64,000 nucleotides of DNA from Burkholderiaceae bacterium (GTDB taxonomy: Bacteria; Pseudomonadota; Gammaproteobacteria; Burkholderiales; Burkholderiaceae_C), in the NCBI GenBank assembly GCA_041905785.1, contig JAYRKJ010000005.1:188319-252318 (forward strand), given 5' to 3'. The notes beneath the pieces are model-generated. The model was not told where the DNA came from and searched no databases. It worked only from the letters and a program-made list of their open reading frames with translations. Made by a program: the position numbers and the translations under genes. Positions 20,303 through 38,007 of the stretch are shown here, in pieces. How positions within the stretch are numbered: position 1 is the stretch's first letter; each line of letters opens with the position of its first letter.

Positions 20303-22300
20303 ATGAACGCCCCTCTGGACACCCCGCTGCTGCGGGAATCGGCATCGGAAGCCGACGCCGACCGCGCGTTGGAGCGCCCATCGCTTCCGGCACAGACGCA
20401 TGCGCCCAATCCCTCGGTGCAGCTCGCGCTCGGCCTCGGCAGCTTGCGCCAGGCCGCCGCGAGCCTGCATGCACAAGGCGGATTCGCGACGCGCGCCCGC
20501 CAGTTGCTGCAGCTTTGCGAGCATCTGCAACTGCATCGCGAATCGCTGATGCATGCCGGCTGGCTGGTGGGCTACGCGCCCTGGGACCAGCACCTGGACT
20601 TCGACGCCGGCCTGCTCGCGGTGCGCAGCATGGCGCAGCAGGTGGCCAACGAATGGCCCGATTCCATGCTGGTGCCGAAGTCCGAGCCGCATGCGCTGGA
20701 CAAAGAGGGCCGGTGCTGGACGGCCGAGGTGCTGGGCCGCGCCGCGGGCGTGGACGTGTTGATCCTGGGCCTGCACCGGCCCTGCGCACACCTGCTGCTG
20801 GGTTTCGCGAGCGCCTGGCTCGCCGGCCGATCCTGCCTGGTGCTCAGTCCGGAAGAGCATCCCCTGCTGGACTCCCTGCTGCTGGCGCTGCGCAGAGGTC
20901 TGCCGCACGGCGGCGCAGCGCTGCGCTGGATGGTGGGCGTCGACACGGCCCATGCCTTGGCGCAGCTGGAGTCGGCCGATCACGTGCAGGTCTGGAGCAC
21001 CCCGGTCGCAGGCGAGCTGCGCTGGGAAGGCATGCAGAGCTGTGCAGCCGATCGCACATTGCATCTGGCCGCCCCCGGCCTGGCGGTGCTGGATGATGCC
21101 GTCGCGGCGGGCAGTCCGATGTTCGAGAGAGTCGTCGACCTCGTGGCTTTGGGCGCCATGGCCGTCCACGGCCTGCATGAACATGCGGTGCGCACCGTCT
21201 GGCTGCCGCGCGAGCTGTCGACGGCCTTTGAAGCCGCCCTGCAGCAGCGTTGGCAGGCCTGGCACGGCAGCCGTCCCTCGCAGCACTGGCAAGGCAGCGC
21301 CGCGGCCGTGCAGCGGCTCGCCATGCAGTCGTGGATCCAGGACAGGCTGCACCAGGGTGCCACCCTGAGCGGTGCGACCGCGCAGGGGCCTGCCGTCCTC
21401 CGGCTGGCATCGCCCCATGACGCCGACGAGCGGGGCTTGGCGGCCCCGCCCCTGGGGCCGGTGCTCGCGCTCTGGGCCTATGACGACGTGGCGGCGTTGA
21501 GGCAAGCCCTGGAGGACAGCCACAGCGGCCGTCGTGCCGGCCTGGCCGTGCTGGCCTGCGGCGCTGAAGCGTGCAGGCGGCAGTGGGGCGCAGCATTGGC
21601 CCGCCGGCATCGCGCGCTGCACATCGTCGCAAACCCGCCCACGGTGCCGGCGGACCCCGACGATGCCTTGCGCCATGCCTGGGAATTGCTGGCCTCCCTG
21701 GACAAGGTCAGCGCCGAAGCGTCCCTCAAGGCATTGCTTCCTTCGTGCGCCGTGCTGGCCGCGCCGGCCGAACTCGGCGAATGCCTCCAGCAGTACCTGC
21801 CCGGCAGCCCGGTGCGCGAACTGGACCTCCACCCCTTTCGCTGCCACTTCGAAGACTTGCGCGTCGGCGACTCGCTGCTCACGCATCGCCGCACGGTCAC
21901 CGAGGCCGATATCGCGGCCTTCGGCGGGGTGTCGGGGGACTACTTCTACATGCACTTTGACGCGGAGGCGGCTGCCGCGTCTCCGTTCGGGCGCCGCATC
22001 GCCCACGGCTATTTCGTGCTGTCTGCAGCGGCCGGCCTGTTTGTCTGGCCCGGCGAAGGGCCGGTGCTGGCGAACTATGGCCTGGACAATCTGCGCTTCA
22101 TCCAGCCTGTCGGGATCGGCGACACCATCCAGGCTCGCCTGACCTGCAAGCGCAAACTGGACAAGGCACGCGCTGGCGGCAAGCGCGGCCAGGGGGTGGT
22201 GGTTTGGGACGTGCTCGTCTGCAATCAGCGTGGCGAAGCCGTGCTGCGCTACGACATCCTGACGCTGGTGGCCCGGCGAGGGCCGGAGGGGCAGGCATGA
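20303..22300 (+). CDS. PaaZ-like oxepin-CoA hydrolase with degenerate aldehyde dehydrogenase domain and intact MaoC hydratase domain
   Basis: C-terminus matches PaaZ closely ([53 protein letters not shown]); GQKCTAIRR-equivalent reads GLHEHAVRT. Confidence 0.85.
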
Positions 22301-22326: not shown

Positions 22327-23157
22327 TCACCGGCTGGGGGCCCGCTTGGCGAAGTAGTGAGCGGGTGAGTCGCCAAAGCAGCGGCGGAACATCGCGATGA
22401 AGTTGCTGGGCGTCGCGTAGCCCAGCGCATCGGCCACATTGGCCACGCTGTCGCCGCGGGCCAGCCGCTCCAGGGCATGGGTGAGCCGCGCCTGCTGACG
22501 CCACTGCGCAAAGCTGACCTGAGTCTCGGCCATGAACAGCCGGCCCAGAGTGCTCGGCGACAGACCCGCCCATTGGGCCCAATCGTCCATGGTGCGCTTG
22601 TCCTCGGGCTGTTCCAGGATGGCGTTGGCGATGCGCAGCAGCCGGCGGTCCTCGGGCATGGGCAGGTGCAGGGGCTCATGCGGTGCGTGGCGCATCTCGT
22701 CCAGCAGTACGGCCAGCATGCGCTCCTGTTCTTCGTTGAGACGCTCTTGCAGGGTCCAGGACACCGCCCGCCGAACCAGCGCCCGCATCAACTCGCTGAT
22801 GCCGATCACGCAAGGCGTGTCCGGCAGCGCCTGGCAGACCGAGGGAGCGATCACCACACTCCAGCCGCTCATGGCGCCGCTGATGCTGACCTTGTGAGCA
22901 ACGCCGGGCGGGATCCAACCGGCGCGATGGGGCGGCAGCAGCCAGGAGCCATGGGGGGTGCGCACATGCACGAGACCGTTTTCCACGCAGAACACCTGCC
23001 CGCGCAGATGGCTGTGCCAGTCGATTTCACGCGTGCCGAGACGGTACTCCGCCTTTGCATCGTCCTCGCCCCATATGGCGATCAGCGGCGGCCCGTCGGC
23101 ACGCTCGCTGAGATCGGGGAGGGCGTCGAGCCCCTGGGGAAATGCGGCATTGGCCAT
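22327..23157 (-). CDS. AraC-family regulator with cupin sensor (NimR-like)
   Basis: DWHSHLRGQ cupin, WLLPPHRAGWIPPG, C-terminal HTH LGYATPSNFIAMFRR; divergent from efflux operon. Confidence 0.92.
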   Translation of the reverse strand: MANAAFPQGLDALPDLSERADGPPLIAIWGEDDAKAEYRLGTREIDWHSHLRGQVFCVENGLVHVRTPHGSWLLPPHRAGWIPPGVAHKVSISGAMSGWSVVIAPSVCQALPDTPCVIGISELMRALVRRAVSWTLQERLNEEQERMLAVLLDEMRHAPHEPLHLPMPEDRRLLRIANAILEQPEDKRTMDDWAQWAGLSPSTLGRLFMAETQVSFAQWRQQARLTHALERLARGDSVANVADALGYATPSNFIAMFRRCFGDSPAHYFAKRAPSR

Positions 23158-23247: not shown

Positions 23248-24729
23248 ATGAAGCGCCATACACGCAGACCAGAAGCAGTACCTCAGCAGGACCATCGCGC
23301 CGCGGCTTGGCGGCGCAGTCGGACGGCCGCAGGCGCATGCCTGCTGGTCTTCGCTGCCCAGCTGAGCGGCTGCGCCAGCATGGGCCCGGAAACGCCGCGC
23401 GTGGCCTTGCTGGACGCCCAGCAGCTGAAGCTCTCGGACGCCCCTGCGGCGGCGCCCAGCCCCTGGCCCCGCCTGGACTGGTGGCAGGCGCTGGGCGACC
23501 CGCAGCTCAATGCCCTGATCGATGATGCCCTGTCGTCTGCTCCCGACCCCATCGCGGCCGACGCGCGTCTGCGCCAGGCACGCGCCGCCGCAGGCATCGA
23601 CGCAGCCGCGCTGCAGCCGCAGCTGACGGCCAGCGTCGGCTGGCAGGGGGTTCGGCAGTCCTCGCAAGCCGTCCCGCCCAGCGAAGGCGGGGGGCAGTTC
23701 AAGCGGAAGTGGGAGGGCAGCCTGGGTCTGGACTGGACGCCGGACCTGTGGGGCGGTCGCCGCGCCGCCTGGACGGCCGCGCTCGGCGCCGTGCGCGCCG
23801 CGGAGGTGTCGGCACAGGACGCCCGCATCCAGCTGACGGTGGCGGTCGCCCAGGCCTATATGCAGCTGGCCTATGCCCATGTGCAGGGTGACATCGCCCG
23901 CGCCGAGCAGGAGCGCGTGGCCGAAGTCCAGCGGCTGACCCAGCAGCGCGTCAGCAGCGGCCTGGGCACGCAGGCACAGTTGCGCCAGACGGACAGCGAC
24001 ATGGCCAGCGCCGCCCAGCAGCGCCTGATGGCCGAGCGCCTGGTGTCCATGGCCCAGACCACGCTGTCGGTGCTGCTGGGCAAGGGTCCGGACCGAGGTG
24101 CCGCCGTGGGACGGCCGGCCTGGCCATCCGGCCCCGTTCTGGCCGCTCCCGGGTGGCTGCCGCTGGAGTTGCTCAGCCGCAGGGCCGACGTCGTGGCCGC
24201 GCGCTGGCGGGTGGAGTCCACCATGCAGCACATCACGTCGGCCAAGACCGCCTTCTTGCCCAATCTGAACCTGGCGGCCCTGGTCGGCGTGGCCGCGACG
24301 CAATGGAGCGACCTGCTTCGCCACGGCTCGGGCGTCTACTCGCTCAGCCCGGCGCTGAGTCTGCCCATCTTCGATGCCGGCAGACGCAGCGCCGAGCTGG
24401 CCGTGCAGGAAGCGCGGTACGACGAGGCGGTCGCTCAATACAACCAGACCTTGGTCAGGGCGGTGAACGAGGTGGCCGACCAGATCCAGGCGCAGCGCTC
24501 GCTCGCCGAGCAGCTGGAACAGCAGCAGCGTGCCAGGGACGCCGCACATGACGCCTGGCAGATGGCTGAGCAGCGCTACAAGGCCGGCGTCGGAAGCTAC
24601 CTGGATGCCCTCTCGGTCCGCCAGCAGCTGCTGCAGGCGGAGCAGCGCCTGGCGGCACTGCAGGCGCAGCGCATCCAGGACGGCCTGCTGCTGGTCAGGG
24701 CATTGGGCGGCGGATTCCGTGCGGAATAA
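23248..24729 (+). CDS. efflux outer-membrane lipoprotein (NodT/OprM family)
   Basis: LSGC lipobox, WWQALGDPQLNALI, ELLSRRADV, LVRALGGG. Confidence 0.92.
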   Translation: MKRHTRRPEAVPQQDHRAAAWRRSRTAAGACLLVFAAQLSGCASMGPETPRVALLDAQQLKLSDAPAAAPSPWPRLDWWQALGDPQLNALIDDALSSAPDPIAADARLRQARAAAGIDAAALQPQLTASVGWQGVRQSSQAVPPSEGGGQFKRKWEGSLGLDWTPDLWGGRRAAWTAALGAVRAAEVSAQDARIQLTVAVAQAYMQLAYAHVQGDIARAEQERVAEVQRLTQQRVSSGLGTQAQLRQTDSDMASAAQQRLMAERLVSMAQTTLSVLLGKGPDRGAAVGRPAWPSGPVLAAPGWLPLELLSRRADVVAARWRVESTMQHITSAKTAFLPNLNLAALVGVAATQWSDLLRHGSGVYSLSPALSLPIFDAGRRSAELAVQEARYDEAVAQYNQTLVRAVNEVADQIQAQRSLAEQLEQQQRARDAAHDAWQMAEQRYKAGVGSYLDALSVRQQLLQAEQRLAALQAQRIQDGLLLVRALGGGFRAE

Positions 24730-24792
24730 GGGACTCAGTAGTGCGCCTGAGGCTTGCAAGCCCGGGCATCGAAGACAAAAGGGGAAGCAATC

Positions 24793-26064
24793 ATGAGTGC
24801 AGAGAAAAGCGTGCAGACACCCGGTGCGGCGGCCACGCCCACCGATCCGGCGGCAGGCGCCACGAACCGTCGGCGCAACTTGCTGCTCAAGGCCTTGCTC
24901 GTCGGGGCTGGCCTAGGCGGGGCCCTCTGGGCCTTGTGGTACCAGCAGATTGGCCGTTGGCACGAGGAAACCGACAACGCCTATGTGCAGGGGAACCTGG
25001 TCCAGATCACGCCTCAGACGGCGGGGACGGTGGTGTCCATCGCGGCGGATGTCGGCGAGCCCGTGGGGCTGGGGCAGACGCTGATCTCCCTGGATCGCAC
25101 CGACAGCGAAGTGGCGCTGGCCTCTGCCATGGCCGATCTCTCGACGGTCATGCGCAAGGTCAAGGGTCTCTACACGCAGGAGCGCGGACTGCGCAGCACC
25201 ATCCAGGGAGCCGAAGCGGATGTGCAATCCCGCCGCGTCACCCTGGACAAAGCGCGCGCCGACTACCAGCGCCGCAAGGAACTGGCACGCTCGGGCGCGA
25301 TCTCGGATGAAGAGCTGGCCCATGCAAGAGACACGCTGTCCGCCGCGCAGAGCGCCTTGAACGCGTCGCAGAGCGCGGTGGCAAGCCTGGAGCAGCAGTA
25401 CCAAGGGAGCAAGGCCTTGGTCGACGGCACCGTGGTGGTCTCTCATCCCGAAGTCCAGAAGGCCGCCGCCACGCTGCGCTCCGCCTATCTCGACCAGGTG
25501 CGGACAGCACTGATCACGCCGGTCGCGGGGCATGTGGCCCAGCGCTCCGTGCAGCTGGGTCAACGCGTGGCCCCGGGCAGCAGCCTGATGTCCGTGCTGC
25601 CGCTGGACCAGGTCTGGGTGGAGGCGAATTTCACCGAAACGCAGCTGGCTCACATCCGGATCGGCCAGCCGGTGGAGCTGCGTGCTGACGCCTACGGCGA
25701 CGCTGTGAGCTACTCCGGCCGCGTGGTCAGCCTGGGGCTGGGAACCGGCAGCGCGTTTTCACCGCTGCCAGTCCAGAACGCCACCGGCAACTGGATCAAG
25801 ATCGTCCAGCGCCTGCCGGTACGGATCGAGCTGACCGATCGCAAGCAGCTGGTCCAGCATCCGCTTCGCCTGGGCTTGTCCATGCACGTCAAGGTCGATG
25901 TGCATGACGAAAGCGGCCCCATGCTGGTCGAGCAGCCACGGGCCAAGCCCAAGCTCAGCACGGACGTGTACAGCAAACAGGTCGACGCTGTGGACAGCCT
26001 GATCGATCGCATCGTCCGCGGCGCGCCGATCGGCACGCCCGCGGTCCGCGGAGCCCAGCGATGA
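24793..26064 (+). CDS. emrA: EmrA-family membrane fusion protein
   Basis: ETDNAYVQG, GTGSAFSPLP.QNATGNWIKIVQRLPVRI. Confidence 0.92.
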   Translation: MSAEKSVQTPGAAATPTDPAAGATNRRRNLLLKALLVGAGLGGALWALWYQQIGRWHEETDNAYVQGNLVQITPQTAGTVVSIAADVGEPVGLGQTLISLDRTDSEVALASAMADLSTVMRKVKGLYTQERGLRSTIQGAEADVQSRRVTLDKARADYQRRKELARSGAISDEELAHARDTLSAAQSALNASQSAVASLEQQYQGSKALVDGTVVVSHPEVQKAAATLRSAYLDQVRTALITPVAGHVAQRSVQLGQRVAPGSSLMSVLPLDQVWVEANFTETQLAHIRIGQPVELRADAYGDAVSYSGRVVSLGLGTGSAFSPLPVQNATGNWIKIVQRLPVRIELTDRKQLVQHPLRLGLSMHVKVDVHDESGPMLVEQPRAKPKLSTDVYSKQVDAVDSLIDRIVRGAPIGTPAVRGAQR

Positions 26065-27659
26065 GCAGCGCATCCGCGACCGCCACCCTGGGGCCGGGCG
26101 AGCCCCGCGGCGGGCCACCCGCGCCGCCAGCGCCAGCGCCGGCGCCGGGCGCTGCGGAATTCCTGCCGCAAAGCGTGCCGCTGACCACCGTGGGACTGGC
26201 CCTGGCCGTCTTCATGCAGGTGCTGGACGGCACCATCGCCAACGTGTCGCTGCCCACCATCGCGGGCAACCTGGGCGTCAGCACCAACCAGAGCGCCTGG
26301 GTGATCACCACCTTCTCGGTATGCAACGCCATCGCCCTGCCATTGACCGGATTCCTGGTCCGTCGCGTGGGGCAGGTGAGGCTTTTCATCTGGTCGACGC
26401 TGCTGTTCACGCTGGCCTCGCTGCTGTGCGGGCTGGCGCAGAGCCTGGGCGCCCTGGTGCTGTTCCGCGCACTGCAAGGCGCCGTGGCGGGTCCGATGAT
26501 CCCGACCACGCAAGCTTTGATGCTGTCCATCTATCCGCCACACCGGCGAGGATTCGCCCTGTCCATGATCGCGATGGTGACGGTGGTGGCGCCGATCGCT
26601 GGACCCTTGCTCGGCGGATGGATCACCGACAGCTACTCGTGGCAGTGGACCTTCCTCATCAACGTACCGATTGGGCTGTTCGCCGCTGCCGCGATTTCCA
26701 ATCAGATGCGAAGCAAGCCGGAGAAGACCGAGGCCGTCAAGGTCGACCACATCGGCCTGGCCACGCTGGTCCTGGGCGTTGGCGCGCTGCAGGTGGTCCT
26801 GGACAAAGGCAATGACGAGGACTGGTTCCAGTCGCCCTTCATCGTGGTCATGTCGCTGGTGGCCGCCATCAGCCTGGCGGTCTTCCTGATCTGGGAGCTG
26901 CACGAGCGCAACCCCATCGTCAACCTCCGGCTCTTTGCCAATCGCAACTTTGCGGCGGGCACGGTGACGCTCGTGCTGGCCTATTCCGCCTTCTTCGCGG
27001 TCAACGTCATCGTGCCCCAGTGGCTGCAGCGCACCATGGGCTACACGGCCATCTGGGCGGGGCTCGCGGCAGCGCCCATGGGCATCCTGCCGGTGCTGTT
27101 GACGCCCTTCATGGGCAAGTACGCGCCGCGCTTCAACATGCGCTGGATGGTCTGCAGCGCCTTCGCGATCCTGGGCGCGGCGTCCTTCATCCGGTCTGGC
27201 TTCTTTCTCGGCGTGGACTTCCAGCATGTGGCGGCGGTCCAGTTGCTGCAGGGCCTGGGGCTGGCCCTCTTCATCATGCCGATCAATGCCATCCTGCTGT
27301 CCGACCTGAAGCCACAGGAGATCGCCGCAGCGTCCGGGCTCTCGACCTTCAGCCGCACCCTGGGTGCCAGCTTTGCCGTCTCGATCACCGCGCTGGTCTG
27401 GGACCGTCGAGCGGTGCTGCACCACGCCCATCTGGCCGAAGGGCTGCCACCCGGCACGCTTGGGCAGCCGGCCCTGCCGCTGGCGCCGGGCGACCAGGCC
27501 TTTGCATTCCGGCTCGACCACTACCTGGACCAGCTCGCCTACCAGATGTCGTTCAACGACGTGGCCTACGCCCTGGGCTGGGTCTTCATGCTGGCCATCG
27601 CCGTGGTGTGGCTGGCCAAGCCGCCCTTCACCCCCAAGGCGCCGCCAGGCAAGCGCTGA
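26061..27659 (+). CDS. emrB: EmrB/QacA (DHA2) MFS efflux pump
   Basis: MQVLDGTIANVSLP, GPLLGGWITDSYSWQWTFLINVPIG, LDKGNDEDWF; 14-TM pattern. Confidence 0.92.
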   Translation: MSSASATATLGPGEPRGGPPAPPAPAPAPGAAEFLPQSVPLTTVGLALAVFMQVLDGTIANVSLPTIAGNLGVSTNQSAWVITTFSVCNAIALPLTGFLVRRVGQVRLFIWSTLLFTLASLLCGLAQSLGALVLFRALQGAVAGPMIPTTQALMLSIYPPHRRGFALSMIAMVTVVAPIAGPLLGGWITDSYSWQWTFLINVPIGLFAAAAISNQMRSKPEKTEAVKVDHIGLATLVLGVGALQVVLDKGNDEDWFQSPFIVVMSLVAAISLAVFLIWELHERNPIVNLRLFANRNFAAGTVTLVLAYSAFFAVNVIVPQWLQRTMGYTAIWAGLAAAPMGILPVLLTPFMGKYAPRFNMRWMVCSAFAILGAASFIRSGFFLGVDFQHVAAVQLLQGLGLALFIMPINAILLSDLKPQEIAAASGLSTFSRTLGASFAVSITALVWDRRAVLHHAHLAEGLPPGTLGQPALPLAPGDQAFAFRLDHYLDQLAYQMSFNDVAYALGWVFMLAIAVVWLAKPPFTPKAPPGKR

Positions 27660-27703: not shown

Positions 27704-28102
27704 ATGGACATGGCCATTGAAACAGCCCAAGTGTTTGAGATGAGCAATTTCCCCATCGTGACCTTCCGCAATGCGGCCATCCGGCCGGGTTATGCGGCGC
27801 GATGGGCGCGGGAGATGGAGGCCCTCATGGCGCGCGGCGAACCCTTCGTCATCGTCTTTCTTCCGAACCGTCCCGAAGAGGATCAGGAAGATCGCAAGCT
27901 GCGCGCCGTCTGGCTGAAGACCCACAAGCATGAGCTGTCCGAGGTGTGCCGCGCCCTCATCACCGTGGAGCCGGACGCCATCCAGCGCGCCGAGGCGGCC
28001 AAGGAAGCGCAAGCCATGCAGAAGGCCTTTGGCCTCCTGTTGGTGAGCGTGGCGACGCAAGAGGAAGCATGGGATCTGGCCACCACCCTCGTGGCGGCCT
28101 GA
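27704..28102 (+). CDS. hypothetical protein, 132 aa (possibly STAS/SEC14-like)
   Basis: AAAGGAG RBS, typical codon use, FPIVTF...RGEPFVIV segment; within operon. Confidence 0.6.
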   Translation: MDMAIETAQVFEMSNFPIVTFRNAAIRPGYAARWAREMEALMARGEPFVIVFLPNRPEEDQEDRKLRAVWLKTHKHELSEVCRALITVEPDAIQRAEAAKEAQAMQKAFGLLLVSVATQEEAWDLATTLVAA

Positions 28103-28180
28103 CCCATGTCGGGCTGCGCGCGGCGCTTCATCGGCGCCGCGACGAACTGATCATCACCTTTGAACCAGAAGGAACTCGAC

Positions 28181-29083
28181 GTGAGTCAAGCGAAGCGAAA
28201 AGTACCGGCCCTGCGCCGCTCGTGGCTGTTTCTTGCCGGCGCCGACCGGCAGGCGCTGCTCGATGGCATCCACTCAGGGGCCGATGTGCTGGTCCAGGAG
28301 CTGGAGACCTTCACGCCACCGGCCCGACGTCCGGAAGCCCGGCAACTGAGCGGGGAGGTCATCCACGGCTGGCGTGAGGCTGGCATCCTCAGTTCGGTTC
28401 GGGTCAATCCGCTGGAAAACGGCGGCATGGAGGACCTCGCGGCCGTGATGCACCATCGGCCCGACATCATCATGATGTCCTACATCTCCACGCCGGAGCA
28501 GGTCGTCGCCCTGGACCAGGCCGTCTCCCACTTCGAGCGGGAGTACGGCATCGAGGCCGGCTCGACCGAGCTGGTGCCCAATATCGAAAGCACCCTGGGC
28601 GTGGTCAACACCATGGCCATCGGCAAATGCAGCCCGCGCGTCAGCGCATTGCTGGTCGCCACCGAAGACATGGTGGCGGACCTGGGTGCCCGCCGCACCC
28701 GGGCCGGCCATGAGCTGGACTACGTGCGCTCGCGATTCCTCGTGGAGTGCGCGGCCATTGGCATGCCGGCCATCGACTGCCCCTACAGCTACTCGGACAA
28801 CGAAGGGGCGGAGCTGGACATGCAGCGCTGCCGCGACCTGGGCTTTCGGTCCAAGGCCATCGTGAACGCCCAGTTCACGTCCGTGGTCAATCGCTGGCTC
28901 ACGCCCTCGGCCGCGGAGCTGGCACTGGCTCGGCGGGTGATCCAGGCCTTCGACCTCGCTCGCAGCCAGTCCGGCGGAAAACGGGTGCCGGCCGCCGTGG
29001 TGGACGGCTTCCTGGCTGAGATTCCCGACTACCTCGCGGCCCAGCGCCTGATCGCACGGGCCCTTCAATTCGGCATGGAGTAA
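28181..29083 (+). CDS. CitE/HpcH-HpaI aldolase-lyase family protein
   Basis: RRSWLF, SGADV...ELE, VRVN, IES, EDM.ADLG, AIDCP, GFRSK; GTG after AAGGA. Confidence 0.82.
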   Translation: MSQAKRKVPALRRSWLFLAGADRQALLDGIHSGADVLVQELETFTPPARRPEARQLSGEVIHGWREAGILSSVRVNPLENGGMEDLAAVMHHRPDIIMMSYISTPEQVVALDQAVSHFEREYGIEAGSTELVPNIESTLGVVNTMAIGKCSPRVSALLVATEDMVADLGARRTRAGHELDYVRSRFLVECAAIGMPAIDCPYSYSDNEGAELDMQRCRDLGFRSKAIVNAQFTSVVNRWLTPSAAELALARRVIQAFDLARSQSGGKRVPAAVVDGFLAEIPDYLAAQRLIARALQFGME

Positions 29084-29090: not shown

Positions 29091-29744
29091 ATGGAATCCC
29101 TGATTCAAAAATTCAAATCGCTGCCCGTCCTGACCGGGCAGTTGTCAGACTTCGATACCGCGGCGGTGCCCAGCAATCCGCAGGCGCTGTTCATGCAGTG
29201 GCTCGATGAAGCCCTTGAGCATGGCATCTGTGAGCCGCATGTAACGACCTTGTCTACGGTGGATCAGGACGGCGCGCCGGACGCCCGCTCGGTGGTCCTT
29301 CTCGACGTGGGCGAGGACGGCTGGCATTTCGCCGCCAATGCGGCCAGCCCGAAGGGCCGCCAACTGGCGAAGCAGCCGCAGGCCGCGATGACCTTCTACT
29401 GGGCCGGCCTGGGGCGCCAGATCCGCTTGCGGGGCGAAGTGAAGGCGCTGGCCCGCGAGGCCGGGCTGGCTGACTTCCGCAGCCGCCCCGAGAAGTCGCG
29501 CGCGGCCATTCTGGCCGCACGGCAAAGCGAGGTGCTTGAGCAGGCCGCTGACCTGGACAGCGCGCTGGCCGTGCAGCTGGCACGCCTCCAGGAAGATCCC
29601 GAGCTGGCCTCGGCGCACTGGACGATGTACGCACTCAAGCCCTTGGACGTCGAGTTCTGGCAGTCCAACGGCCAGCGCCGCTTCACCCGTCTGCGCTACC
29701 GGCGCCAGGGGCAGCAGTGGACACGACAGCTGCTGTGGCCATGA
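29091..29744 (+). CDS. pyridoxamine 5'-phosphate oxidase-like FMN protein (PdxH/PhzG family)
   Basis: TLSTVD..G.PDARSV, SPKGRQL, FYW..LGRQIRLRG, VEFWQ, RLRY. Confidence 0.88.
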   Translation: MESLIQKFKSLPVLTGQLSDFDTAAVPSNPQALFMQWLDEALEHGICEPHVTTLSTVDQDGAPDARSVVLLDVGEDGWHFAANAASPKGRQLAKQPQAAMTFYWAGLGRQIRLRGEVKALAREAGLADFRSRPEKSRAAILAARQSEVLEQAADLDSALAVQLARLQEDPELASAHWTMYALKPLDVEFWQSNGQRRFTRLRYRRQGQQWTRQLLWP

Positions 29745-30967
29745 GCAAGAACGTCGAGCTGAAACCGCAAGAGGGGTCGCACCCCTGGCAGCCCGACCAG
29801 GGGGTCGGCACGCGGCTGGTCCATGCCGGTCGCAATCCGGCGGCCTACCATGGCTTCGTCAACACCCCCGTCTTTCGCGCCTCGACAGTGCTGAGCCCCA
29901 CGGTCCGCGAGCTGCTGGGGCGTACGCAGCCCTACATCTACGGGCGCCGGGGCACCCCAACCTCGCAGGCCCTGGAGCGCGCCGTCTGCGAGCTCGAGGG
30001 CGGCGTTGGCGCCGTGCTGTGCCCCTCGGGGCTTTCGGCCTGCACGCTGGCGCTTCAGTCCTGTCTCAGGCCCGGCGACCATGTGCTGGTCACCGATGCC
30101 GTCTACGGTCCTGTCCGCCATGCCTGCGAGGGTCTGCTCAAGCGCATGGCCATCGACGTGAGCTACTTTGCGCCAATGATGGGCGCTGAGCTGGCCTCGC
30201 TCGTTCGACCGAACACCCGGGCCGTTTACCTGGAGTCGCCGGGTTCGCACAGCATGGAGGTGCAGGACATTCCGGCGATCGTCTCGGTCGCCAGGGCGCA
30301 TGAGCTGACGGTGATCGCCGATTGCAGCTGGGCCACGCCCTTGTTCCTCCCGGCGCATGAGCTCGGCGTCGACCTGTCCATCCAGGCGGGCACCAAGTAT
30401 CTGTTGGGCCATTCCGACGGGATGCTGGGCACGGTGTCGGCGTCGTCCCGCGCCTGGCCCGCGCTGAAGGCACTGCATGGCGACCTGGGCTTGTGCGTGG
30501 GTCCGGACGACGTGTTCCTCGCCTTGCGTGGTCTGCGTTCCCTGCAGGTGCGCCTGCGCCAGCACGAGCAGGGTGGCCTGCAGGTGGCGCGCTGGCTCAA
30601 GCAGCAGAAGGAGGTGGCACGTGTGCTGCACCCGGCGCTGGAGGACTGCCCGGGACATGCGTTCTGGAAACGCGACTTCAGAGGTTCTTCCGGCCTTTTC
30701 ACCGTGGTGCTGAAGCCGGCACCGTTCGCAGCGGTCGAAGCCTTTCTGGATGGTCTTCGCCTGTTCGGCCTCGGCTATTCCTGGGGTGGCTTCGAGAGCC
30801 TGGCCTTGCCGCTCGATGCCTCGAGCGGGCGGCTGACCGAGCTTTGCGAGCCGGGCAGTCAGTGCGTTCGGCTGCACATCGGGCTTGAAGACCCACAGGA
30901 TCTCATCGACGACCTGCGGGCCGGCCTGGATCGCCTGCAGAACGTATGCATGGAATCGTTGAGCTAG
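29741..30967 (+). CDS. metC: cystathionine beta-lyase-like PLP C-S lyase (MetC type)
   Basis: VNTPVFRAST, YGRRGTPT, YLESPGS, QAGTKYLLGHSD (PLP Lys), GYSWGGFESL; ATGA overlap. Confidence 0.88.
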   Translation: MSKNVELKPQEGSHPWQPDQGVGTRLVHAGRNPAAYHGFVNTPVFRASTVLSPTVRELLGRTQPYIYGRRGTPTSQALERAVCELEGGVGAVLCPSGLSACTLALQSCLRPGDHVLVTDAVYGPVRHACEGLLKRMAIDVSYFAPMMGAELASLVRPNTRAVYLESPGSHSMEVQDIPAIVSVARAHELTVIADCSWATPLFLPAHELGVDLSIQAGTKYLLGHSDGMLGTVSASSRAWPALKALHGDLGLCVGPDDVFLALRGLRSLQVRLRQHEQGGLQVARWLKQQKEVARVLHPALEDCPGHAFWKRDFRGSSGLFTVVLKPAPFAAVEAFLDGLRLFGLGYSWGGFESLALPLDASSGRLTELCEPGSQCVRLHIGLEDPQDLIDDLRAGLDRLQNVCMESLS

Positions 30968-30977
30968 AAGGGAGAGC

Positions 30978-31661
30978 ATGGACATGTTGACCGTATGGGG
31001 GCGGCGCAGCTCATTCAATGTTCAGAAGGTGATGTGGCTGATCGGTGAGCTCGGACTCCCGCATCGCCACATCCCGGCCGGCGGCGACTTCGGCGGCTGC
31101 GATACGCCGGCGTTCGAGCGGCTCAATCCGCACCAGCGTGTGCCCGTGATCGAGCATGACGGCGAGGTGGTGTGGGAGTCCCACGCCATCCTTCGCTACC
31201 TTGCCGCCAAAGCCGGCCGCGAACCCTTCTGGTCCGCGGACGCTCACCGACGCTCGCTGAGCGAGCGCTGGATGGATTGGAGCCAGAGCTCGCTGGAGCC
31301 CGATCTCATGCTGGGGCTCTTCTGGGCCCTCGTGCGAACGCCGGCAGAGCAGCGAGACGAGGCGCTGATTCGGACCAAGCTGGCCCTGAGCGTGCGGCAC
31401 TTCCAGCGCCTGGACGGCATCCTGGCCCGACAGCCCTACCTCAGCGGCGATGCCCTCGGGCTGGGCGACATCCCTGCCGGTGCCACGCTGTTTCGCTACT
31501 ACTCGATGGACATCGACAGGCCACGACTGCCGCACGTGAACGACTGGTACCGACGGCTTTGCGCCCGCCCGGCCTACCAGGAGCACGTGATGGTGTCCTA
31601 TGACGAACTGCGGGGCCGCCCAGACCGCAGCGCGCTCGTCCTGGACTGGGAGCTGCCATGA
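30978..31661 (+). CDS. glutathione S-transferase (GstB/YliJ-like)
   Basis: WGRRSSFNVQKV, LNP..RVPV, WESHAILRYL, WYRRLCARP. Confidence 0.93.
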   Translation: MDMLTVWGRRSSFNVQKVMWLIGELGLPHRHIPAGGDFGGCDTPAFERLNPHQRVPVIEHDGEVVWESHAILRYLAAKAGREPFWSADAHRRSLSERWMDWSQSSLEPDLMLGLFWALVRTPAEQRDEALIRTKLALSVRHFQRLDGILARQPYLSGDALGLGDIPAGATLFRYYSMDIDRPRLPHVNDWYRRLCARPAYQEHVMVSYDELRGRPDRSALVLDWELP

Positions 31662-32350
31662 AGCCGCCCGTGCTGCTGATCCTGCACCGGCCGCAGTCAT
31701 CGCCAGGTCGCGTCGGACGCCTGCTGAAGCAAAAGGGCTACGAGCTGGACATCAGGCGGCCGCCCCTGGGCGACACGCTCCCACCGACGCTGCGGGCGCA
31801 CAGTGGGGTGGTGGTGTTTGGCGGCCCCATGAGCGCCAATGATCCGGATCCCTGGCTGCGAACCGAGACGGACTGGCTTCGCGTCCCCTTGAGGGAGCAG
31901 GCGCCGCTTCTGGGCATCTGCCTGGGTGCCCAGCTGCTGGCACGCCATCTCGGTGCCGCCGTGCGCCCAAGGGCCGACGGCCGCGTCGAGATCGGCTACT
32001 GGCCGATCCGGCCCACGTCCAAGGGACGGCAGCTGGGGCACTGGCCCGAGCGCGTCTATCACTGGCATCGCGAGGGCTTTGATCTGGTGGACGGGATGCA
32101 GCGGCTCGCCGTCGGCGAGGTCTTCGAAAACCAGGCCTTCCATTACGGCAGGAAGGCCTATGGCCTGCAATTCCACCCCGAGGTCAGCTACCAGACCATG
32201 AACCGCTGGGCGCTGTCCGCACCCGACAAGCTGCACGCTCCCGGCGCTCAGCTGCTGGCGACGCAGCGTCATCAGGGCGGGCGGCATGACCGCGCCGGGA
32301 AAGCCTGGCTCAGCGCCTTTCTGGATGGCTGGCTCGCACCGGCCGCCTGA
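31658..32350 (+). CDS. class I glutamine amidotransferase-like protein (possible gamma-glutamyl peptidase)
   Basis: FGGPMSAND, LGICLGAQ (nucleophile Cys), GLQFHPE (His-x-Glu); ATGA overlap with GST. Confidence 0.88.
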   Translation: MKPPVLLILHRPQSSPGRVGRLLKQKGYELDIRRPPLGDTLPPTLRAHSGVVVFGGPMSANDPDPWLRTETDWLRVPLREQAPLLGICLGAQLLARHLGAAVRPRADGRVEIGYWPIRPTSKGRQLGHWPERVYHWHREGFDLVDGMQRLAVGEVFENQAFHYGRKAYGLQFHPEVSYQTMNRWALSAPDKLHAPGAQLLATQRHQGGRHDRAGKAWLSAFLDGWLAPAA

Positions 32351-32604
32351 GTGCCAGGTGGGTGGCACGCCCCACCCTGTCACCTGATTGCGGGATGCTT
32401 ATGCGCCGGGGCGTGCCATGTCGCCAGCCTTTGGAATTGTAAAATGCACAGAAACTCGCATTTCACGGCCCATGCCACATGGGGGCGCCCAGGGTCGCGC
32501 GGCCATGGAATGCCCAAGCAGTTCAGGATAGTTGCTCAACGCAGAGCAGGGTTCCGCTGCAGCCGCATGCAGCAGTCCAGAGGCTTGTTTCAAGCAAAAA
32601 CGCG

Positions 32605-33225
32605 ATGTCCAACCAGCAAGCAGGTCCGCGCAAGATTCCGAGCCAGGCTCGGTCGCGCCGCATGGTCGATTCGATTCTAGAAGCAGCGGCCGGCGTGCTG
32701 GCCGAGCGCGGCTATGCCGGGACGAGCACCAACCTGGTCGCCGAGCGGGCCGGCGTGAGCGTCGGGTCCGTCTATCAATACTTTCCCAACAAGGACTCGC
32801 TGGTCGCGGCCCTGCATGAGCGCCATGCGGGCCAGATGTACCAGGTCATCGATGCCGTGTTGGGGACCGGCCATCGAGGCAATCTGCGCAGCCAGATTGA
32901 AGCCATGGTGCGGGCACTGATGGCCGCGCACATGGTCGAGCCCCGCTTGCATCGTGTCCTGGAGCAGGAACTTCCCTTCTTCGAGATCCCCAAGGCGAAC
33001 GACAGCCCCTCGGACAAGGGCATCTTCTCGCGCGTGCAGCTGCTGCTGGAGCAGCACCGCGCCGAGATCGTGCCGCAAGACGTTCCGCTGGCCGCCTGGG
33101 TGATCCAGCGCATCATCGAATCCATGGTCCATGCCGCCGTCATCGACCCGCCGCCTGGATTCTCCATGCCGGAGATTGAGCGCGCGATCGTCGATGCCGT
33201 GCTGGGTTTTCTGGGCGCGCGCTGA
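32605..33225 (+). CDS. TetR/AcrR-family regulator
   Basis: PSQARSRRMVDSILEAA...VAERAGVSVGSVYQYFPNK HTH. Confidence 0.93.
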   Translation: MSNQQAGPRKIPSQARSRRMVDSILEAAAGVLAERGYAGTSTNLVAERAGVSVGSVYQYFPNKDSLVAALHERHAGQMYQVIDAVLGTGHRGNLRSQIEAMVRALMAAHMVEPRLHRVLEQELPFFEIPKANDSPSDKGIFSRVQLLLEQHRAEIVPQDVPLAAWVIQRIIESMVHAAVIDPPPGFSMPEIERAIVDAVLGFLGAR

Positions 33226-33349
33226 GCCATAGCCGGCGCCGGACCTGACCTTTGTCCGCCTGAAGGGCGCCGGCGCCGCAGGCGCCGGGCATGTGCATTG
33301 CCAGCAGCGAAGACCCACCCGAGGGGCAACTGACTTTGCGGAGAATGCC

Positions 33350-33789: not shown

Positions 33790-34509
33790 TCAGAAGAGCA
33801 TCCCCAGCACGGCCGCCTTCAGCACCGCCTGCGTCTTGTTTGTCGAGTTCAGCTTCATCGTGGCCTTGGCCACATGAAAGTTGACGGTGCGCTTGGTCAA
33901 GCCCAGGATCATGGCGATCTCTGATGACGTCTTGCCGTCAGCCGTCCACTGAAGGATGGTGCGCTCCCGCTCGCTCAACCGGGAATCAGGCCGGTGGAAC
34001 AGTTGCGGGAGGCGGCGCTTCAGCACGCCGTCATGCAGACGCTGGCAAAAGCCGGCCAGCTCAGCCGCCTTCTCATCAAACTCCCCCAGCGACACGCCCC
34101 CATGTGTCCGGGCAAAGGTCATGGCGCCAATGATGCCGTGCTCGGTCCGCGCGGGCAGCGTGCAGCCGTAGTGCATGCCGCAGCTCAGCGCGGTCCGCCA
34201 GAAGAGGATGGGCGTCTGCTGGCCGGCCGCCGCCCACAGCCATGGGCTGCTGCTTCCCTGGGCGTGCCGAATCCACGGGTCTTGCACCGCGAAGTCCTGG
34301 CCCGCATAGGCTTCAAGCCATTCACGAGGCGCGTTGCCGGTCTGAATGACCGCCGGACGGGTCATTGGCGGATAGACATGCGCCTGGTACAGGCAATGAT
34401 CAAAGCCCAGCTTCTTCGCGAAAGAAGACATCAGCCGCTCGCATTCTTGCTCCTCAAGTTCGTGGCCGCATCGCGGAACAACCCCGCCATCAATAACGCA
34501 ATCCTGCAT
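33790..34509 (-). CDS. LuxR-family autoinducer-binding regulator (apparent solo)
   Basis: W-x3-Y, DP, W, G ligand-pocket pattern (EWLEAY..QDFAVQDPW..SPWLW..GMHYG); HTH WTADGKTSSEIA...TVNFH; alternative start 34560. Confidence 0.9.
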   Translation of the reverse strand: MQDCVIDGGVVPRCGHELEEQECERLMSSFAKKLGFDHCLYQAHVYPPMTRPAVIQTGNAPREWLEAYAGQDFAVQDPWIRHAQGSSSPWLWAAAGQQTPILFWRTALSCGMHYGCTLPARTEHGIIGAMTFARTHGGVSLGEFDEKAAELAGFCQRLHDGVLKRRLPQLFHRPDSRLSERERTILQWTADGKTSSEIAMILGLTKRTVNFHVAKATMKLNSTNKTQAVLKAAVLGMLF

Positions 34510-34919
34510 GCTTGACTCCCTGGTTCGTCGAGTGCCCACCATCAATAAATATTCAATCACTCGCGTTTCTCTGCATTCTCTTGGGTCGTTCTGACATGGA
34601 CGTTACCAACCGTGTCAGTCATGCCGGCGTGATCCTGCCAACGCCCAGAATCACCAGCAATCAAGCCACATTTGGCAAGTTTCATTTGCTTACATGCAAT
34701 GGGCGAACCCTCGCAAAATGCACAAACATGGAGCAAATGCCCACGCTATTGGCATGCACATTGACGTCAATATGCGAGTAACAAGTCGCGTGTTGTCGTG
34801 ATGCATAGGCCGGTATGGCCATGAGGACGCGACGACAGCGCCCAATTGCCAGCACGGCCGAGACGCGCCGGGATACGAGACCGGGCGAAGGGACGGCCGA
34901 CCTACGCCGAGTCCAGGCC

Positions 34920-35525
34920 TTAGGCGCGAACCGCGCTTCGATAGCGGCCCAGCACCCTCAGTTCGCAGGCCAGAGCAGCAGCGTCCTGCAGGGCCAGCCT
35001 GACGTCTTCGCGGTCGGGAGGGGCGGCGATGGTGAAATGGAAGCGATAGTGCCAGCCCGCGACGCGCGCCGGCCGCGAGCACCAATGCTCGACGGACAGG
35101 CGACGTCGCGCCAGCGGCGACAGCAGCTCCAGCATGCTGCCGGTGCGCTGCGCAAGGGACACCGCGATCATCAGGCGGTCGTCATCTTCACCCGGTGGAT
35201 GGCCCTTGCCTGCGATGACGCCATACCTGATGCAGGAGGTGCCACCCAGCGGGGTCGGCGGTGTTGGCGTGCCGGGCACCAGCACTTCGCCCACCATGCT
35301 GACTGCGCCCGAGTAGAGAAGATCGAGGCTGCGGTTGACGGGGCCATCCCTGCTGCATTCCAGCGGCATGACACCGTAGCGGCATGCTCCTTCCGCTACG
35401 GCGGCATGGATGGCATCCAGGCTTGCAAAGGGCAGACGCGGCGGCTCAGGTCCGAAGTACCTGGCCGCGGCGAGCTCGCCGGCGGATCCCTGCGGGCCCG
35501 GATAGGCGATGCCGGCATCCGCCAT
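34920..35525 (-). CDS. shortened prephenate dehydratase-like protein with ACT domain (TdaC-like)
   Basis: IAYPGPQGS, YGVMPLECS..GPV..SLDLL, then ACT (GSMLELLSPLA...SRP); only 201 aa. Confidence 0.72.
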   Translation of the reverse strand: MADAGIAYPGPQGSAGELAAARYFGPEPPRLPFASLDAIHAAVAEGACRYGVMPLECSRDGPVNRSLDLLYSGAVSMVGEVLVPGTPTPPTPLGGTSCIRYGVIAGKGHPPGEDDDRLMIAVSLAQRTGSMLELLSPLARRRLSVEHWCSRPARVAGWHYRFHFTIAAPPDREDVRLALQDAAALACELRVLGRYRSAVRA

Positions 35526-35553: not shown

Positions 35554-36717
35554 TCAGGCCGCCTGGGGCGCCGCCAGCGGGCGGGTCACGGCCTGCGCGG
35601 TCAGCGGCCGGATCATCTGGTTGAAGATGTTCTTGCGATGCATCTCCTCGGTGCCGCCCACGCTGGCGAAGCCCAGGGCGTCACGCATCAGGGTCGCGAT
35701 CGGTCCTTCATGGTAGCCGCGGCTTCCATACAGCCGGACCAGATCCAGCGCGCTCTTGATGAGGTCTTCCGATCCCACCAGCTTGGCCACCGAGCAGGCC
35801 AGCAAGGCGTCGGGCTGCTCGCCCAGCAGCCGACCGAGCGCGCCGAGCGCCGTCCAGCGGCTGCGCTCCATGCCGATGCGGATGTCCGTCAGGCGACGCT
35901 GCACATACTGGTGGTCGATGATGGGCTCGCGGAAGCTGTGCCGCGCCTGGGCATAACGCAAGGCGTCATCAAGAAAGGGCGCAGCCAGCGCGGCGGCCAC
36001 CAAGCCGTAATATGCGCGCCCCAGCGAAATGATGTCGATGAGCTGACGCAAGCCGCGCTTGGGATCGCCCAAGACCTGGGCGTGCGGCACGAAGACGTCG
36101 TGGAACTCCAGGCTGCCCGTGGGAAGATCCGCGTTGCCCAGCTTGTGATCACTCGGGCCGGTCACCAGGCCATCAGCGTCTCGGTCCACGAAGACCAGGC
36201 CCACCGCCTCCGGCGCGTCGGCATACCGGCAAACAACCAGCGAGAACGCTGCCATGGGGGCATGCGCAATGTTGTATTTGCTGCCGTTCAGCAGATAACC
36301 CTCGGCGCAGGGCGTCAGTGTGCTGCCCAGGCTGCGCACGTCTGTACCGGTACTGGGCTCGGCGATTCCCGTGGCGCACAGCTCCCCGCGCGCCAGCGCG
36401 GCCAGATACTTGTCCTTCTGTGCCACCGTGCCGTAGCGCTGCAGCCCGCGGACCATGCCCGCCTGCGCAATGGCCGACAGCAACAGGGCAGGGGAGCGGA
36501 TGGAGAGCGACAAGCCCTCCAACGCTGCCGTGAAGTCCCACCAAGCCGGCGTACTGCCCTCCCGCTGGCCGATGAGCTGCCAAAGGCCCTCCTGGCGCAG
36601 GCGGCCCCAGCGGCACGCGTCAAAACCCGGCTGCGCGCCCATGGCGGCGAGCTGCTCACCCAGCCCGCGAAAGCGGTGGTGCAAGGCCAGTTGGTGTTCA
36701 GACCACTGCATCATCAT
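35554..36717 (-). CDS. acyl-CoA dehydrogenase-fold flavoprotein (TdaE-like candidate)
   Basis: TGIAEPSTGTDV, LNGSKYNI, KLG, AKL, GSRGY, GGTEEM; AAGGAG RBS. Confidence 0.85.
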   Translation of the reverse strand: MMMQWSEHQLALHHRFRGLGEQLAAMGAQPGFDACRWGRLRQEGLWQLIGQREGSTPAWWDFTAALEGLSLSIRSPALLLSAIAQAGMVRGLQRYGTVAQKDKYLAALARGELCATGIAEPSTGTDVRSLGSTLTPCAEGYLLNGSKYNIAHAPMAAFSLVVCRYADAPEAVGLVFVDRDADGLVTGPSDHKLGNADLPTGSLEFHDVFVPHAQVLGDPKRGLRQLIDIISLGRAYYGLVAAALAAPFLDDALRYAQARHSFREPIIDHQYVQRRLTDIRIGMERSRWTALGALGRLLGEQPDALLACSVAKLVGSEDLIKSALDLVRLYGSRGYHEGPIATLMRDALGFASVGGTEEMHRKNIFNQMIRPLTAQAVTRPLAAPQAA

Positions 36718-36739: not shown

Positions 36740-37153
36740 TCAGACGCTGCCCTGGAAATCCAGGATCTTGGCCTTGAATTCTTCGGTGACCGGCGTGGTC
36801 TTGTTCGTGGCGTAGTCAAACATCACATGCTTCGAGTAGCCGCGTGCCACCACGGTGTCCTGCTCATCCTGGCGATGCATCACGTGCTCGATCTCGAAGC
36901 TCTTGGTTCCGAAGTTGCTGACCCGACTGCGAACCACCAGGCTGTCGCCGAACATGGCCGGCTGCACATACTCGCAGGCAGTTTTCACCATGATGTGAGG
37001 CAGCTTCTCATGCTTGGGGATGGACAGCACCTTGAACATGAACTCGAGGTAGGCATGCTGAAGATAGTCGTAGTAGACCGGGCTGCTGACATGACCCATT
37101 GAATCAGTGTCCCGATATTTCACCTGGATGGGCGTTTCAAAGTTCCTGCTCAT
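36740..37153 (-). CDS. hotdog-fold acyl-CoA thioesterase (4-HBA-CoA/YbgC type, TdaD-like)
   Basis: IQVKYRDTDSMGHV...YYDY, FGTKSF; AAGGAG RBS. Confidence 0.88.
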   Translation of the reverse strand: MSRNFETPIQVKYRDTDSMGHVSSPVYYDYLQHAYLEFMFKVLSIPKHEKLPHIMVKTACEYVQPAMFGDSLVVRSRVSNFGTKSFEIEHVMHRQDEQDTVVARGYSKHVMFDYATNKTTPVTEEFKAKILDFQGSV

Positions 37154-38006: not shown

Positions 38007-38007
38007 G

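Follow-up and report, generated by a model that had tools for sequence, protein, structure and literature searches.

A coupled five-gene block in a Roseateles-like tropone gene cluster as a candidate sulfur-incorporation module

How sulfur enters the tropone antibiotics, such as tropodithietic acid (TDA), the roseobacticides, and ditropolonyl sulfide, has been described as unresolved (PMC8772269). The same question is raised by a locus in a Burkholderiaceae bacterium (genome 4.84 Mb; nearest named relatives Roseateles and Mitsuaria), which lies in a stretch of 64,000 nucleotides of contig JAYRKJ010000005.1 (assembly GCA_041905785.1, positions 188,319 to 252,318 of the forward strand; ~68% G+C), hereafter called the window. 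Here, five coupled genes encode, in this order, a CitE-like coenzyme A (CoA)-ester lyase, a PdxH-like protein, a MetC-type C-S lyase dependent on pyridoxal phosphate (PLP), a glutathione S-transferase (GST), and a protein with the fold of a class I glutamine amidotransferase (GATase). Comparison with related loci supports well the view that this block is the candidate sulfur-incorporation module of a tropone cluster and has its orthologue in the putative cluster for ditropolonyl sulfide in Burkholderia. At a probability of roughly 0.6, we read it as a module that would bring sulfur into a phenylacetate-derived tropone cluster of the ditropolonyl sulfide type by GST conjugation, gamma-glutamyl removal, and C-S cleavage by the lyase.

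All five genes lie on the forward strand and are joined by overlaps or by gaps of 10 nt or less. The first (28160..29083, +; PF03328, 5.6e-29) encodes the CitE/HpcH-HpaI-like CoA-ester lyase, which is TpoB-like and corresponds to the "CoA L" of Duan et al. (2021); it is a single-copy gene in this genome and is kept in all cluster loci compared. After a spacer of 7 nt follows the gene for the PdxH/PNPOx-like flavin mononucleotide (FMN) protein, the "PLP-synthase" of the same authors (29091..29744, +; PF01243 and PF10590; PRK05679, 165.8 bits with a cutoff of 129), of which a paralogue with 38% identity is found elsewhere in the genome. This gene ends ...CCATGA at 29744, and the MetC-like gene begins with ATG at 29741, giving an ATGA overlap that can be read directly from the sequence. 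The MetC-like gene (29741..30967, +) closes with TAG at 30967 and is separated by 10 nt (30968-30977, gaagggagag), purine-rich and resembling a ribosome binding site (RBS), from the ATG of the GST gene at 30978. The GST gene (30978..31661, +) has its TGA stop at 31659-31661, which forms a second ATGA overlap with the ATG of the GATase gene at 31658 (31658..32350, +), and the block ends at 32350. It stands on the same strand as, and directly downstream of, a small hypothetical gene and an efflux system made up of an outer membrane protein (OMP), EmrA, and EmrB.

A preliminary description of this DNA had presented the last three genes as a possible sulfur-insertion cassette, with 10 nt between the first and second of them, an ATGA overlap between the second and third, and an intact Cys/His/Glu triad in the last protein. 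Both junctions are present as described and the triad is indeed intact, but the unit is one of five genes, the two coupled genes upstream (CitE-like and PdxH-like) having been missed.

The setting of the block is given by a small number of neighbouring genes. The orthologue of TdaE, a flavoprotein dioxygenase of the acyl-CoA dehydrogenase fold (35554..36711, −; the start at 36711 was inferred from alignment, the open reading frame (ORF) being open to 36819), shares 50.6% identity with the TdaE of Phaeobacter inhibens, an enzyme characterised in biochemical work, 61% with that of Janthinobacterium lividum, and 55-57% with those in loci of the Burkholderia cepacia complex. The orthologue of TdaD, a hotdog thioesterase (36740..37153, −), has 61% identity to its counterpart in P. 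inhibens; its start is the ATG at 37153 behind an AGGAG RBS, and the mechanically called ORF of 319 aa (36740-37699) is over-extended, overlapping a gene for Fe2+ transport on the opposite strand (37404-38006). A TdaC-like short protein resembling prephenate dehydratase (34920..35525, −; partial match to PF00800) lies next to TdaE.

The remaining member is PaaZ2 (20303..22300, +), a paralogue of PaaZ with an intact MaoC hydratase domain, to which its Pfam match is confined, and a dead aldehyde dehydrogenase (ALDH) domain. It is a full-length paralogue, 36% identical to Escherichia coli PaaZ and 30% to P. inhibens PaaZ2, and in its ALDH domain the two catalytic residues have given way to others (E256 to A and C295 to H, E. 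coli PaaZ numbering). The canonical PaaZ of this genome adjoins paaA on another contig (C31) and retains E256 and C295; the canonical paa locus thus lies outside the window. A PaaZ2 arrangement of this kind diverts phenylacetate catabolism to the tropone precursor (PMC8283759). Since orthologues of TdaE, TdaD, and PaaZ2 are present, the region is by homology a tropone biosynthetic cluster; the preliminary description had placed its trio in such a cluster, and the TdaC, TdaD, and TdaE orthologues together with the ALDH-dead PaaZ2 bear this out.

The closest published counterpart comes from the work of Duan et al. (Journal of the American Chemical Society, 2021), who sought tda homologues in Burkholderia genomes and put forward a putative ditropolonyl sulfide cluster in Burkholderia cenocepacia Bp8974 (PMC8283759, Fig. 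2, Table S3). Their table lists TdaE, the CoA-ester lyase, the "PLP-synthase," "PatB?" (cystathionine beta-lyase), "TdaB?" (GST), and "GAT" (glutamine amidotransferase), as well as an autoinducer-binding regulator, a hypothetical protein of 143 aa, three efflux proteins, a helix-turn-helix regulator, a glutamate-cysteine ligase, a 3-deoxy-D-arabino-heptulosonate 7-phosphate (DAHP) synthase, and TdaD (PMC8283759). Ditropolonyl sulfide itself is a sulfur-bridged dimer, C14H10O4S, free of nitrogen and made by several isolates of the B. cepacia complex (PMC7912996).

The window and the B. cepacia complex loci match gene for gene at 51-81% identity, and the five-gene block is found in identical order at 51-74%. 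Depoorter et al. (2021, Applied and Environmental Microbiology) are said to have studied the biosynthesis of ditropolonyl sulfide genetically. Common to the window and the Bp8974 cluster are TdaE, the five-gene block, a LuxR-type regulator, the small hypothetical protein, EmrB, EmrA, and the OMP, an AraC-type regulator, DAHP synthase, and TdaD. The window has in addition PaaZ2, the short TdaC, a TetR regulator, a DUF326 protein, and a second DAHP synthase. Missing from the window is the GCS2-type Glu-Cys ligase of the Burkholderia cluster, and the window's TdaC, TdaE, and TdaD genes lie downstream on the opposite strand, whereas the Burkholderia TdaE gene heads the operon.

A useful point of reference is the tropolone cluster of Burkholderia plantarii treated in the same paper, which yields the same reactive TdaE product and a sulfur-free end product (PMC8283759); none of the five block genes is found in it. 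Given the added PaaZ2 and TdaC and the absence of TdaF, the window cluster could make ditropolonyl sulfide itself, a thiotropolone, or a compound akin to these. The gene set is not new, and the preliminary description stands in so far as the genes sit in a tropone cluster and are the obvious candidate for sulfur insertion, but not as a first sighting, the same set having been listed in 2021. What is new is a member of this cluster type in a genus like Roseateles or Mitsuaria.

Loci for comparison were retrieved with the GST (80 loci), and two more were obtained via the GATase. The whole block is present in 21 of the 80 GST-retrieved loci, drawn from the Roseateles/Mitsuaria type, nine species of the B. 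cepacia complex, Undibacterium, Serratia fonticola, and Buttiauxella; the two GATase-retrieved loci, from Paraburkholderia bryophila and Herbaspirillum rubrisubalbicans, also carry it. The block genes thus occur together in at least 22 loci, mostly with like order and overlaps; these loci represent no fewer than seven genera and show four different architectures. In Undibacterium the genes are split across both strands yet still co-located, and in Herbaspirillum seven genes that overlap by 4 nt are packed into one operon (TdaE-TdaD-CitE-PdxH-MetC-GST-GATase). Because the association recurs across genera, also where the order has been rearranged, it amounts to more than chance.

The eight congener genomes allow a finer view. 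The cluster-type MetC (78-86% identity) is found in exactly six of them, the same six that have TdaE, and in neither of the two that lack it, whereas a different MetC paralogue (40% identity, PRK07050-like) occurs in all eight. A role of the cluster MetC in methionine biosynthesis was rejected on this pattern; the preliminary description had named methionine supply as a reading that would tell against it, and the distribution contradicts that reading. A sample of 400 further genomes from the order yielded no TdaE, so the cluster is rare. As a separate observation, TdaE carries in-frame stops in two congeners (G405:C41:41410-42666 and G402:C115:12109-13281, as genome, contig, and positions; one TGA, and one TGA plus one TAG, respectively), which may reflect either cluster decay or assembly error. 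Given the co-distribution of MetC with TdaE, the paralogues elsewhere in the genome, and the spread across genera, the block is accessory, mobile between lineages, and tied to TdaE, and not part of primary metabolism.

The lyase is a fold-type-I PLP enzyme with 44% identity to E. coli MetC (TIGR01324 cystathionine beta-lyase in NCBIfam, 462.7 bits with a cutoff of 365.9; PF01053 Cys_Met_Meta_PP in Pfam, 3.6e-96), and it is predicted to be a C-S beta-lyase in the form of a cluster-specific accessory copy. It retains K210 (the PLP lysine), D185, Y111, R58, R59, R372, S339, and W340. Relative to E. coli MetC, the substitutions D116H and Y238G run throughout the cluster clade, site 116 being Met in Herbaspirillum. 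To judge from titles cited in PMC5025676, work on E. coli MetC has dealt with D116 and Y238 as residues of the active site or of specificity. The pocket could, to go by these residues, be adapted to an aryl-cysteine conjugate, but the signal is weak, as the other MetC paralogue of this genome also deviates at sites 116 and 238. The lyase is MetC-type and unlike PatB, as had been stated at the outset: the window protein belongs to PF01053 and the PatB type to PF00155, with no meaningful similarity between them.

The GST (GST_N and GST_C domains) is 37% identical over 206 residues, that is, full-length, to E. coli GstB (YliJ), and its nearest solved structures are 6nv6 (1.6e-57) and 4kh7 (1.4e-44). 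It had been set beside TdaB, but the protein is of the GstB type and no TdaB orthologue, with 25% identity over only ~100 residues. In a tree from whose input four Undibacterium GSTs had dropped out, the 19 GSTs from clusters group together (100/99 support) to the exclusion of 56 stand-alone copies, and several Burkholderia genomes hold one cluster-type and one stand-alone GST each. By this tree the cluster GSTs share a single origin, the window copy being a dedicated cluster paralogue.

The last protein of the block is a stand-alone GATase of the PRK06490 family (PF00117, 1.7e-15 in Pfam; PRK06490 glutamine amidotransferase in NCBIfam, 341.4 bits with a cutoff of 339), for which we propose the role of a gamma-glutamyl hydrolase. 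Its triad, Cys88/His173/Glu175, is invariant in 45 homologues. A sequence search of solved structures gives TM1158 (1.7e-30), 9xfs, and 3m3p as nearest. The AlphaFold2 model (predicted local distance difference test score, pLDDT, 94.7) was compared using Foldseek, with TM1158 (1o1y) and DnfC (8khs) as best matches (template modelling score, TM, 0.86-0.88; 32-33% identity). GGP1 of Arabidopsis, the next functionally characterised structural neighbour after DnfC, follows at TM 0.77-0.80 with probability 1.0, and the glutaminase subunits of GMP synthase score lower (~0.6).

Membership in the GGP1/Peptidase C26 sequence family was rejected: PF07722 (Peptidase_C26) has no Pfam match in the window GATase, with faint C26 matches in some homologues, and the GGP1 hit reaches only E=0.005. 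The preliminary description had called the protein GGP1-like, which is right for the class I fold and triad and wrong for the sequence family. Both DnfC of Alcaligenes and TM1158 are stand-alone PRK06490-like GATases like the window protein, and DnfC hydrolyses glutamine and glutamate gamma-hydroxamate alone, without a synthase subunit (PMC11440038). DnfC belongs, however, to another pathway (dirammox) and another genomic context, and its physiological substrate is debated. No synthase partner for the window GATase is encoded nearby. With this, and with a known product that is free of nitrogen, hydrolysis fits the protein better than amide transfer, and a true amidotransferase role is unlikely.

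A further line of evidence comes from clusters of the TDA type. That of J. lividum encodes, in this order, PaaZ2, a GshB-like protein, TdaD, a hypothetical protein, an M23 peptidase, a GATase, a PatB-type lyase, TdaF, a TdaB-type GST, TdaE, and a LysR regulator. Full-length identity between its GATase and that of the window is 51%, and the GATase gene is coupled to the lyase gene by a 4-nt ATGA overlap; the same pattern is seen on a metagenomic contig, whose GATase is 62% identical to the window's. The lyase (PF00155) and the GST (GST_C_7-type) of these clusters are both non-homologous to their window counterparts. On this comparison, the GATase is the constant partner, and GST and lyase appear to have been swapped for non-homologous enzymes of like function.

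The position of the GATase gene in J. lividum is instructive in its own right. A pair of genes for a hypothetical protein and an M23 peptidase is followed by the GATase in J. lividum (CP048832.1, L115:6151-9332) and by a gamma-glutamylcyclotransferase of the ChaC family (TdaR3) in P. inhibens (pPGA2_239, L090:16256-18161), the two J. lividum proteins being 42% and 61% identical to those of the P. inhibens pair, which lies 3' of TdaE. ChaC enzymes cut the gamma-glutamyl bond of glutathione. This suggests, by analogy, that unrelated gamma-glutamyl-cleaving enzymes have occupied one slot, mirroring GliK and GGP1 in eukaryotic sulfur pathways. As a side observation, the tdaR1-3 "resistance" genes of Phaeobacter may possibly act in gamma-glutamyl thiol processing.

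Genes for thiol supply are clustered as well. Every one of the eight Burkholderia loci whose flanks are long enough has a GCS2 Glu-Cys ligase, as does that of Paraburkholderia, and a GshB-like gene lies within the J. lividum cluster. GshA and GshB are encoded in the window genome. The GshB-like gene in the Janthinobacterium tda cluster has also been noted in PMC13163973.

From these pieces we assemble the following route. The paa catabolon and the ALDH-dead PaaZ2 would supply a seven-membered, CoA-bound precursor, from which TdaE would form an electrophilic epoxytropone-2-carboxylate; TdaE orthologues make this compound, which is predisposed to nucleophilic attack by sulfur (Duan et al. 2021, PMC8283759). 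The GST would add glutathione or gamma-Glu-Cys to the epoxytropone, and the GATase-fold enzyme, lacking a synthase partner, would hydrolyse the gamma-glutamyl bond. If glutathione is the donor, a housekeeping peptidase would have to strip the Gly, there being no candidate in the cluster; with gamma-Glu-Cys as donor no such step is needed. The MetC-type beta-lyase would convert the S-cysteinyl conjugate into a thiotropolone, pyruvate, and ammonia. The thiol might then react with another electrophile, so that two tropolones become bridged by sulfide, or remain a thiotropolone, and the EmrAB-OMP pump would export the product.

This order of conjugation, trimming, and cleavage, which had been proposed in the preliminary description, is favoured by the constancy of the GATase beside non-homologous GSTs and lyases, the exchange of ChaC and GATase in one slot, the clustered thiol-supply genes, and the nitrogen-free product; what does not fit is that the cluster holds no peptidase to remove glycine. 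The mechanism differs from the published working model for TDA, in which the lyase produces the sulfur donor, S-thiocysteine, from cystine and the GST adds it; the literature consulted on these clusters does not contain the order proposed here.

Several points weigh against it. All of the support is comparative, and the step assigned to the GATase would be that of a protein whose sequence match to GGP1 is marginal. The PRK06490 family is widespread, and in Alphaproteobacteria homologues with 55-57% identity are solitary genes among unrelated neighbours; since family members occur in such contexts, membership does not fix the substrate. A GCS2 Glu-Cys ligase was found neither in the window nor in the whole genome, and a search within the window found no Gly-removing dipeptidase in the cluster. 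Two published assignments also point elsewhere: PatB of P. inhibens, which is needed for TDA, cuts cystine to S-thiocysteine in vitro (PMC7497051), and the Phaeobacter ChaC gene, tdaR3, which lies in the equivalent position, is reported to confer TDA resistance and has been assigned to self-resistance, not to biosynthesis (PMC9075582).

The first of these assignments leads to an explanation that we consider unlikely, though it has literature behind it, namely that the MetC-type lyase is a functional PatB that turns cystine into S-thiocysteine or another persulfide, which the GST transfers to the TdaE product, with the GATase accessory or unrelated. The labels "PatB?" and "TdaB?" of Duan et al. 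follow persulfide logic (PMC8283759), and MetC-type enzymes, as promiscuous C-S lyases, could form a persulfide (PDB entry 21kb is titled as a cysteine-S-conjugate beta-lyase). A persulfide donor leaves unexplained, however, why a strictly conserved, coupled GATase accompanies both cluster types, why ChaC and the GATase replace each other, and why genes for Glu-Cys ligase and GshB-like proteins are clustered; and the family of the GST, GstB, is one of enzymes that conjugate glutathione.

The second assignment would make the block a means of self-protection. In that case GST, GATase, and lyase would detoxify epoxytropone or tropolone in the manner of mercapturate formation, or the GATase would be a functional analogue of TdaR3 that drives a gamma-glutamyl cycle serving resistance, and the sulfur of the product would come from elsewhere, if there is any. 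By analogy with the Phaeobacter ChaC, a protective role of the GATase is possible; the block also lies directly 3' of the efflux pump on the same strand, and GstB-type GSTs are generally detoxifying. As an account of the whole block we hold this to be quite improbable, because the block is absent from the sulfur-free B. plantarii cluster despite the same reactive TdaE product and is found in the one to which a sulfur-bridged product has been ascribed. Moreover, the window genome has no homologues of tdaR1 or tdaR2, and a beta-lyase step makes a reactive thiol, which is atypical of detoxification.

That the block serves primary metabolism, with MetC making methionine, PdxH making PLP, and the GATase delivering glutamine-derived nitrogen as chance neighbours of a tropone cluster, is scarcely credible, for although the MetC-like protein exceeds the TIGR01324 cutoff with its core catalytic residues in place and the PdxH-like protein exceeds that of PRK05679, the genome has second copies of both, the congeners without a cluster MetC are precisely those without TdaE, the block is kept with TdaE across distant genera and rearrangements, and the cluster GSTs form a clade separate from the stand-alone GSTs of the same Burkholderia genomes.

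The other genes of the cluster can be dealt with briefly. Two DAHP synthase genes, for precursor supply (17768-18901 and 19025-20110, +; PF00793), precede PaaZ2, and two more copies are found elsewhere in the genome. PaaZ2 is followed by an AraC-family regulator (22327..23157, −; PF12833), which is 75-93% identical among cluster loci, and by the tripartite efflux system of NodT-type OMP, EmrA, and EmrB (23248..27659, +), recognised by profile matches and conserved with the cluster. Between the pump and the block lies a conserved hypothetical gene of 132 aa (27704..28102, +; no Pfam match), the counterpart of the 143-aa hypothetical protein in Table S3 of Duan et al.; homologues with 43-80% identity stand beside EmrB in most cluster loci, including those of Burkholderia and Serratia.

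Downstream of the block are a TetR-family regulator (32479..33225, +; PF00440 and PF17918; seen in Roseateles-type loci only) and a DUF326 protein, a Cys-rich four-helix bundle resembling copper-storage proteins (33293-33679); both genes are confined to the Roseateles/Mitsuaria version of the cluster. A LuxR-type regulator with an autoinducer-binding domain follows (33790..34560, −; PF03472 and PF00196), and the Burkholderia version has one too.

The tropone cluster is flanked by iron-acquisition loci on both sides (window positions 1-16107 and 37404-51008). The upstream flank encodes a TonB receptor, a PepSY protein, an enterochelin-esterase-like protein, a major facilitator superfamily exporter, isochorismate synthase, a dihydroxybenzoate-AMP ligase, and a nonribosomal peptide synthetase of 2492 aa with the domain order C-A-T-C-A-T-TE. 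The downstream flank encodes the Fe2+ transport protein, an OprB-like porin, an FTR1 permease, a HemS/ChuX haem-utilisation protein, a TonB receptor, and FecCD/ABC proteins. Since tropolones chelate iron, co-regulation of the tropone cluster with these loci is possible. Farther downstream (53812-56660) lies a three-gene unit of methyltransferase, sulfotransferase, and arginase-fold protein, which is unrelated to the tropone cluster.

What the comparison yields is a concrete, testable model of a GST, a GATase-fold gamma-glutamyl hydrolase, and a C-S lyase acting in turn, backed by two independent gene displacements, that is, the GATase beside a non-homologous GST and lyase, and the GATase in the slot of ChaC. 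It also extends the cluster type to a non-pathogenic freshwater/soil genus. If the model is true, it would for the first time define a biosynthetic role for the PRK06490 "glutamine amidotransferases," a widespread and uncharacterised family, and provide parts for the engineering of thiolated tropolones.

The exchange of GATase and ChaC may bear on TDA biosynthesis as well. More tentatively, and rather doubtfully at present, conjugation with a gamma-glutamyl thiol followed by trimming could be the general sulfur route into bacterial tropones, including TDA, with the GATase (of the Janthinobacterium, Burkholderia, and Roseateles types) and the ChaC-type TdaR3 of Phaeobacter interchangeable as biosynthetic enzymes that take off the gamma-glutamyl group, the lyases, whether MetC-type or PatB-type, acting on S-tropolonyl-cysteine, and no free persulfide donor. 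Were this so, the current model of TDA formation would have to be revised and a "resistance" gene reassigned.

Three known systems help to place the block. One is formed by the tda clusters of Phaeobacter inhibens and Janthinobacterium, with orthologues of TdaC, TdaD, TdaE, and PaaZ2 in common (50-61% identity for TdaD and TdaE) and with both types of cluster encoding a GST and a PLP-dependent C-S lyase. The window differs in having a GstB-type GST and not one of the beta-etherase-like TdaB type, a MetC-type and not a PatB-type lyase, and genes for CitE-like and PdxH-like proteins, which only its own cluster type possesses. The genome has no TdaB homologue and no orthologues of TdaF or the PatB-type lyase, the best matches to these two being generic paralogues with 25-29% identity; TdaA, tdaR1/tdaR2, and ChaC are absent too. 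For want of TdaB, TdaF, and PatB orthologues, assignment of the locus to the TDA clusters was rejected.

The formation of ergothioneine in mycobacteria offers a second parallel, above all to the GCS2-bearing version of the cluster in Burkholderia and Paraburkholderia: it uses gamma-Glu-Cys, made by a clustered Glu-Cys ligase (EgtA), as sulfur donor, Glu removal by an amidotransferase-type enzyme (EgtC), and a PLP-dependent C-S lyase (EgtE). It differs in that C-S bond formation by EgtB is oxidative and not catalysed by a GST, and in that the window has no clustered ligase. EgtC, moreover, is a class II (N-terminal nucleophile) amidotransferase and not one of class I.

The third likeness, one of logic, is to gliotoxin (GliG, GliK, GliJ, and GliI) and to the glucosinolates and camalexin of plants (GST, GGP1, and SUR1), where sulfur is brought in by GST conjugation, removal of the gamma-glutamyl group, and cleavage by a PLP-dependent C-S lyase; the chemistry proposed for the window would follow the same steps. 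There is no orthology between these systems and the window, the latter has no dipeptidase equivalent to GliJ, and its lyase belongs to another PLP family. As in plants, however, the gamma-glutamyl step of the window would be carried out by an enzyme with the class I GATase fold.

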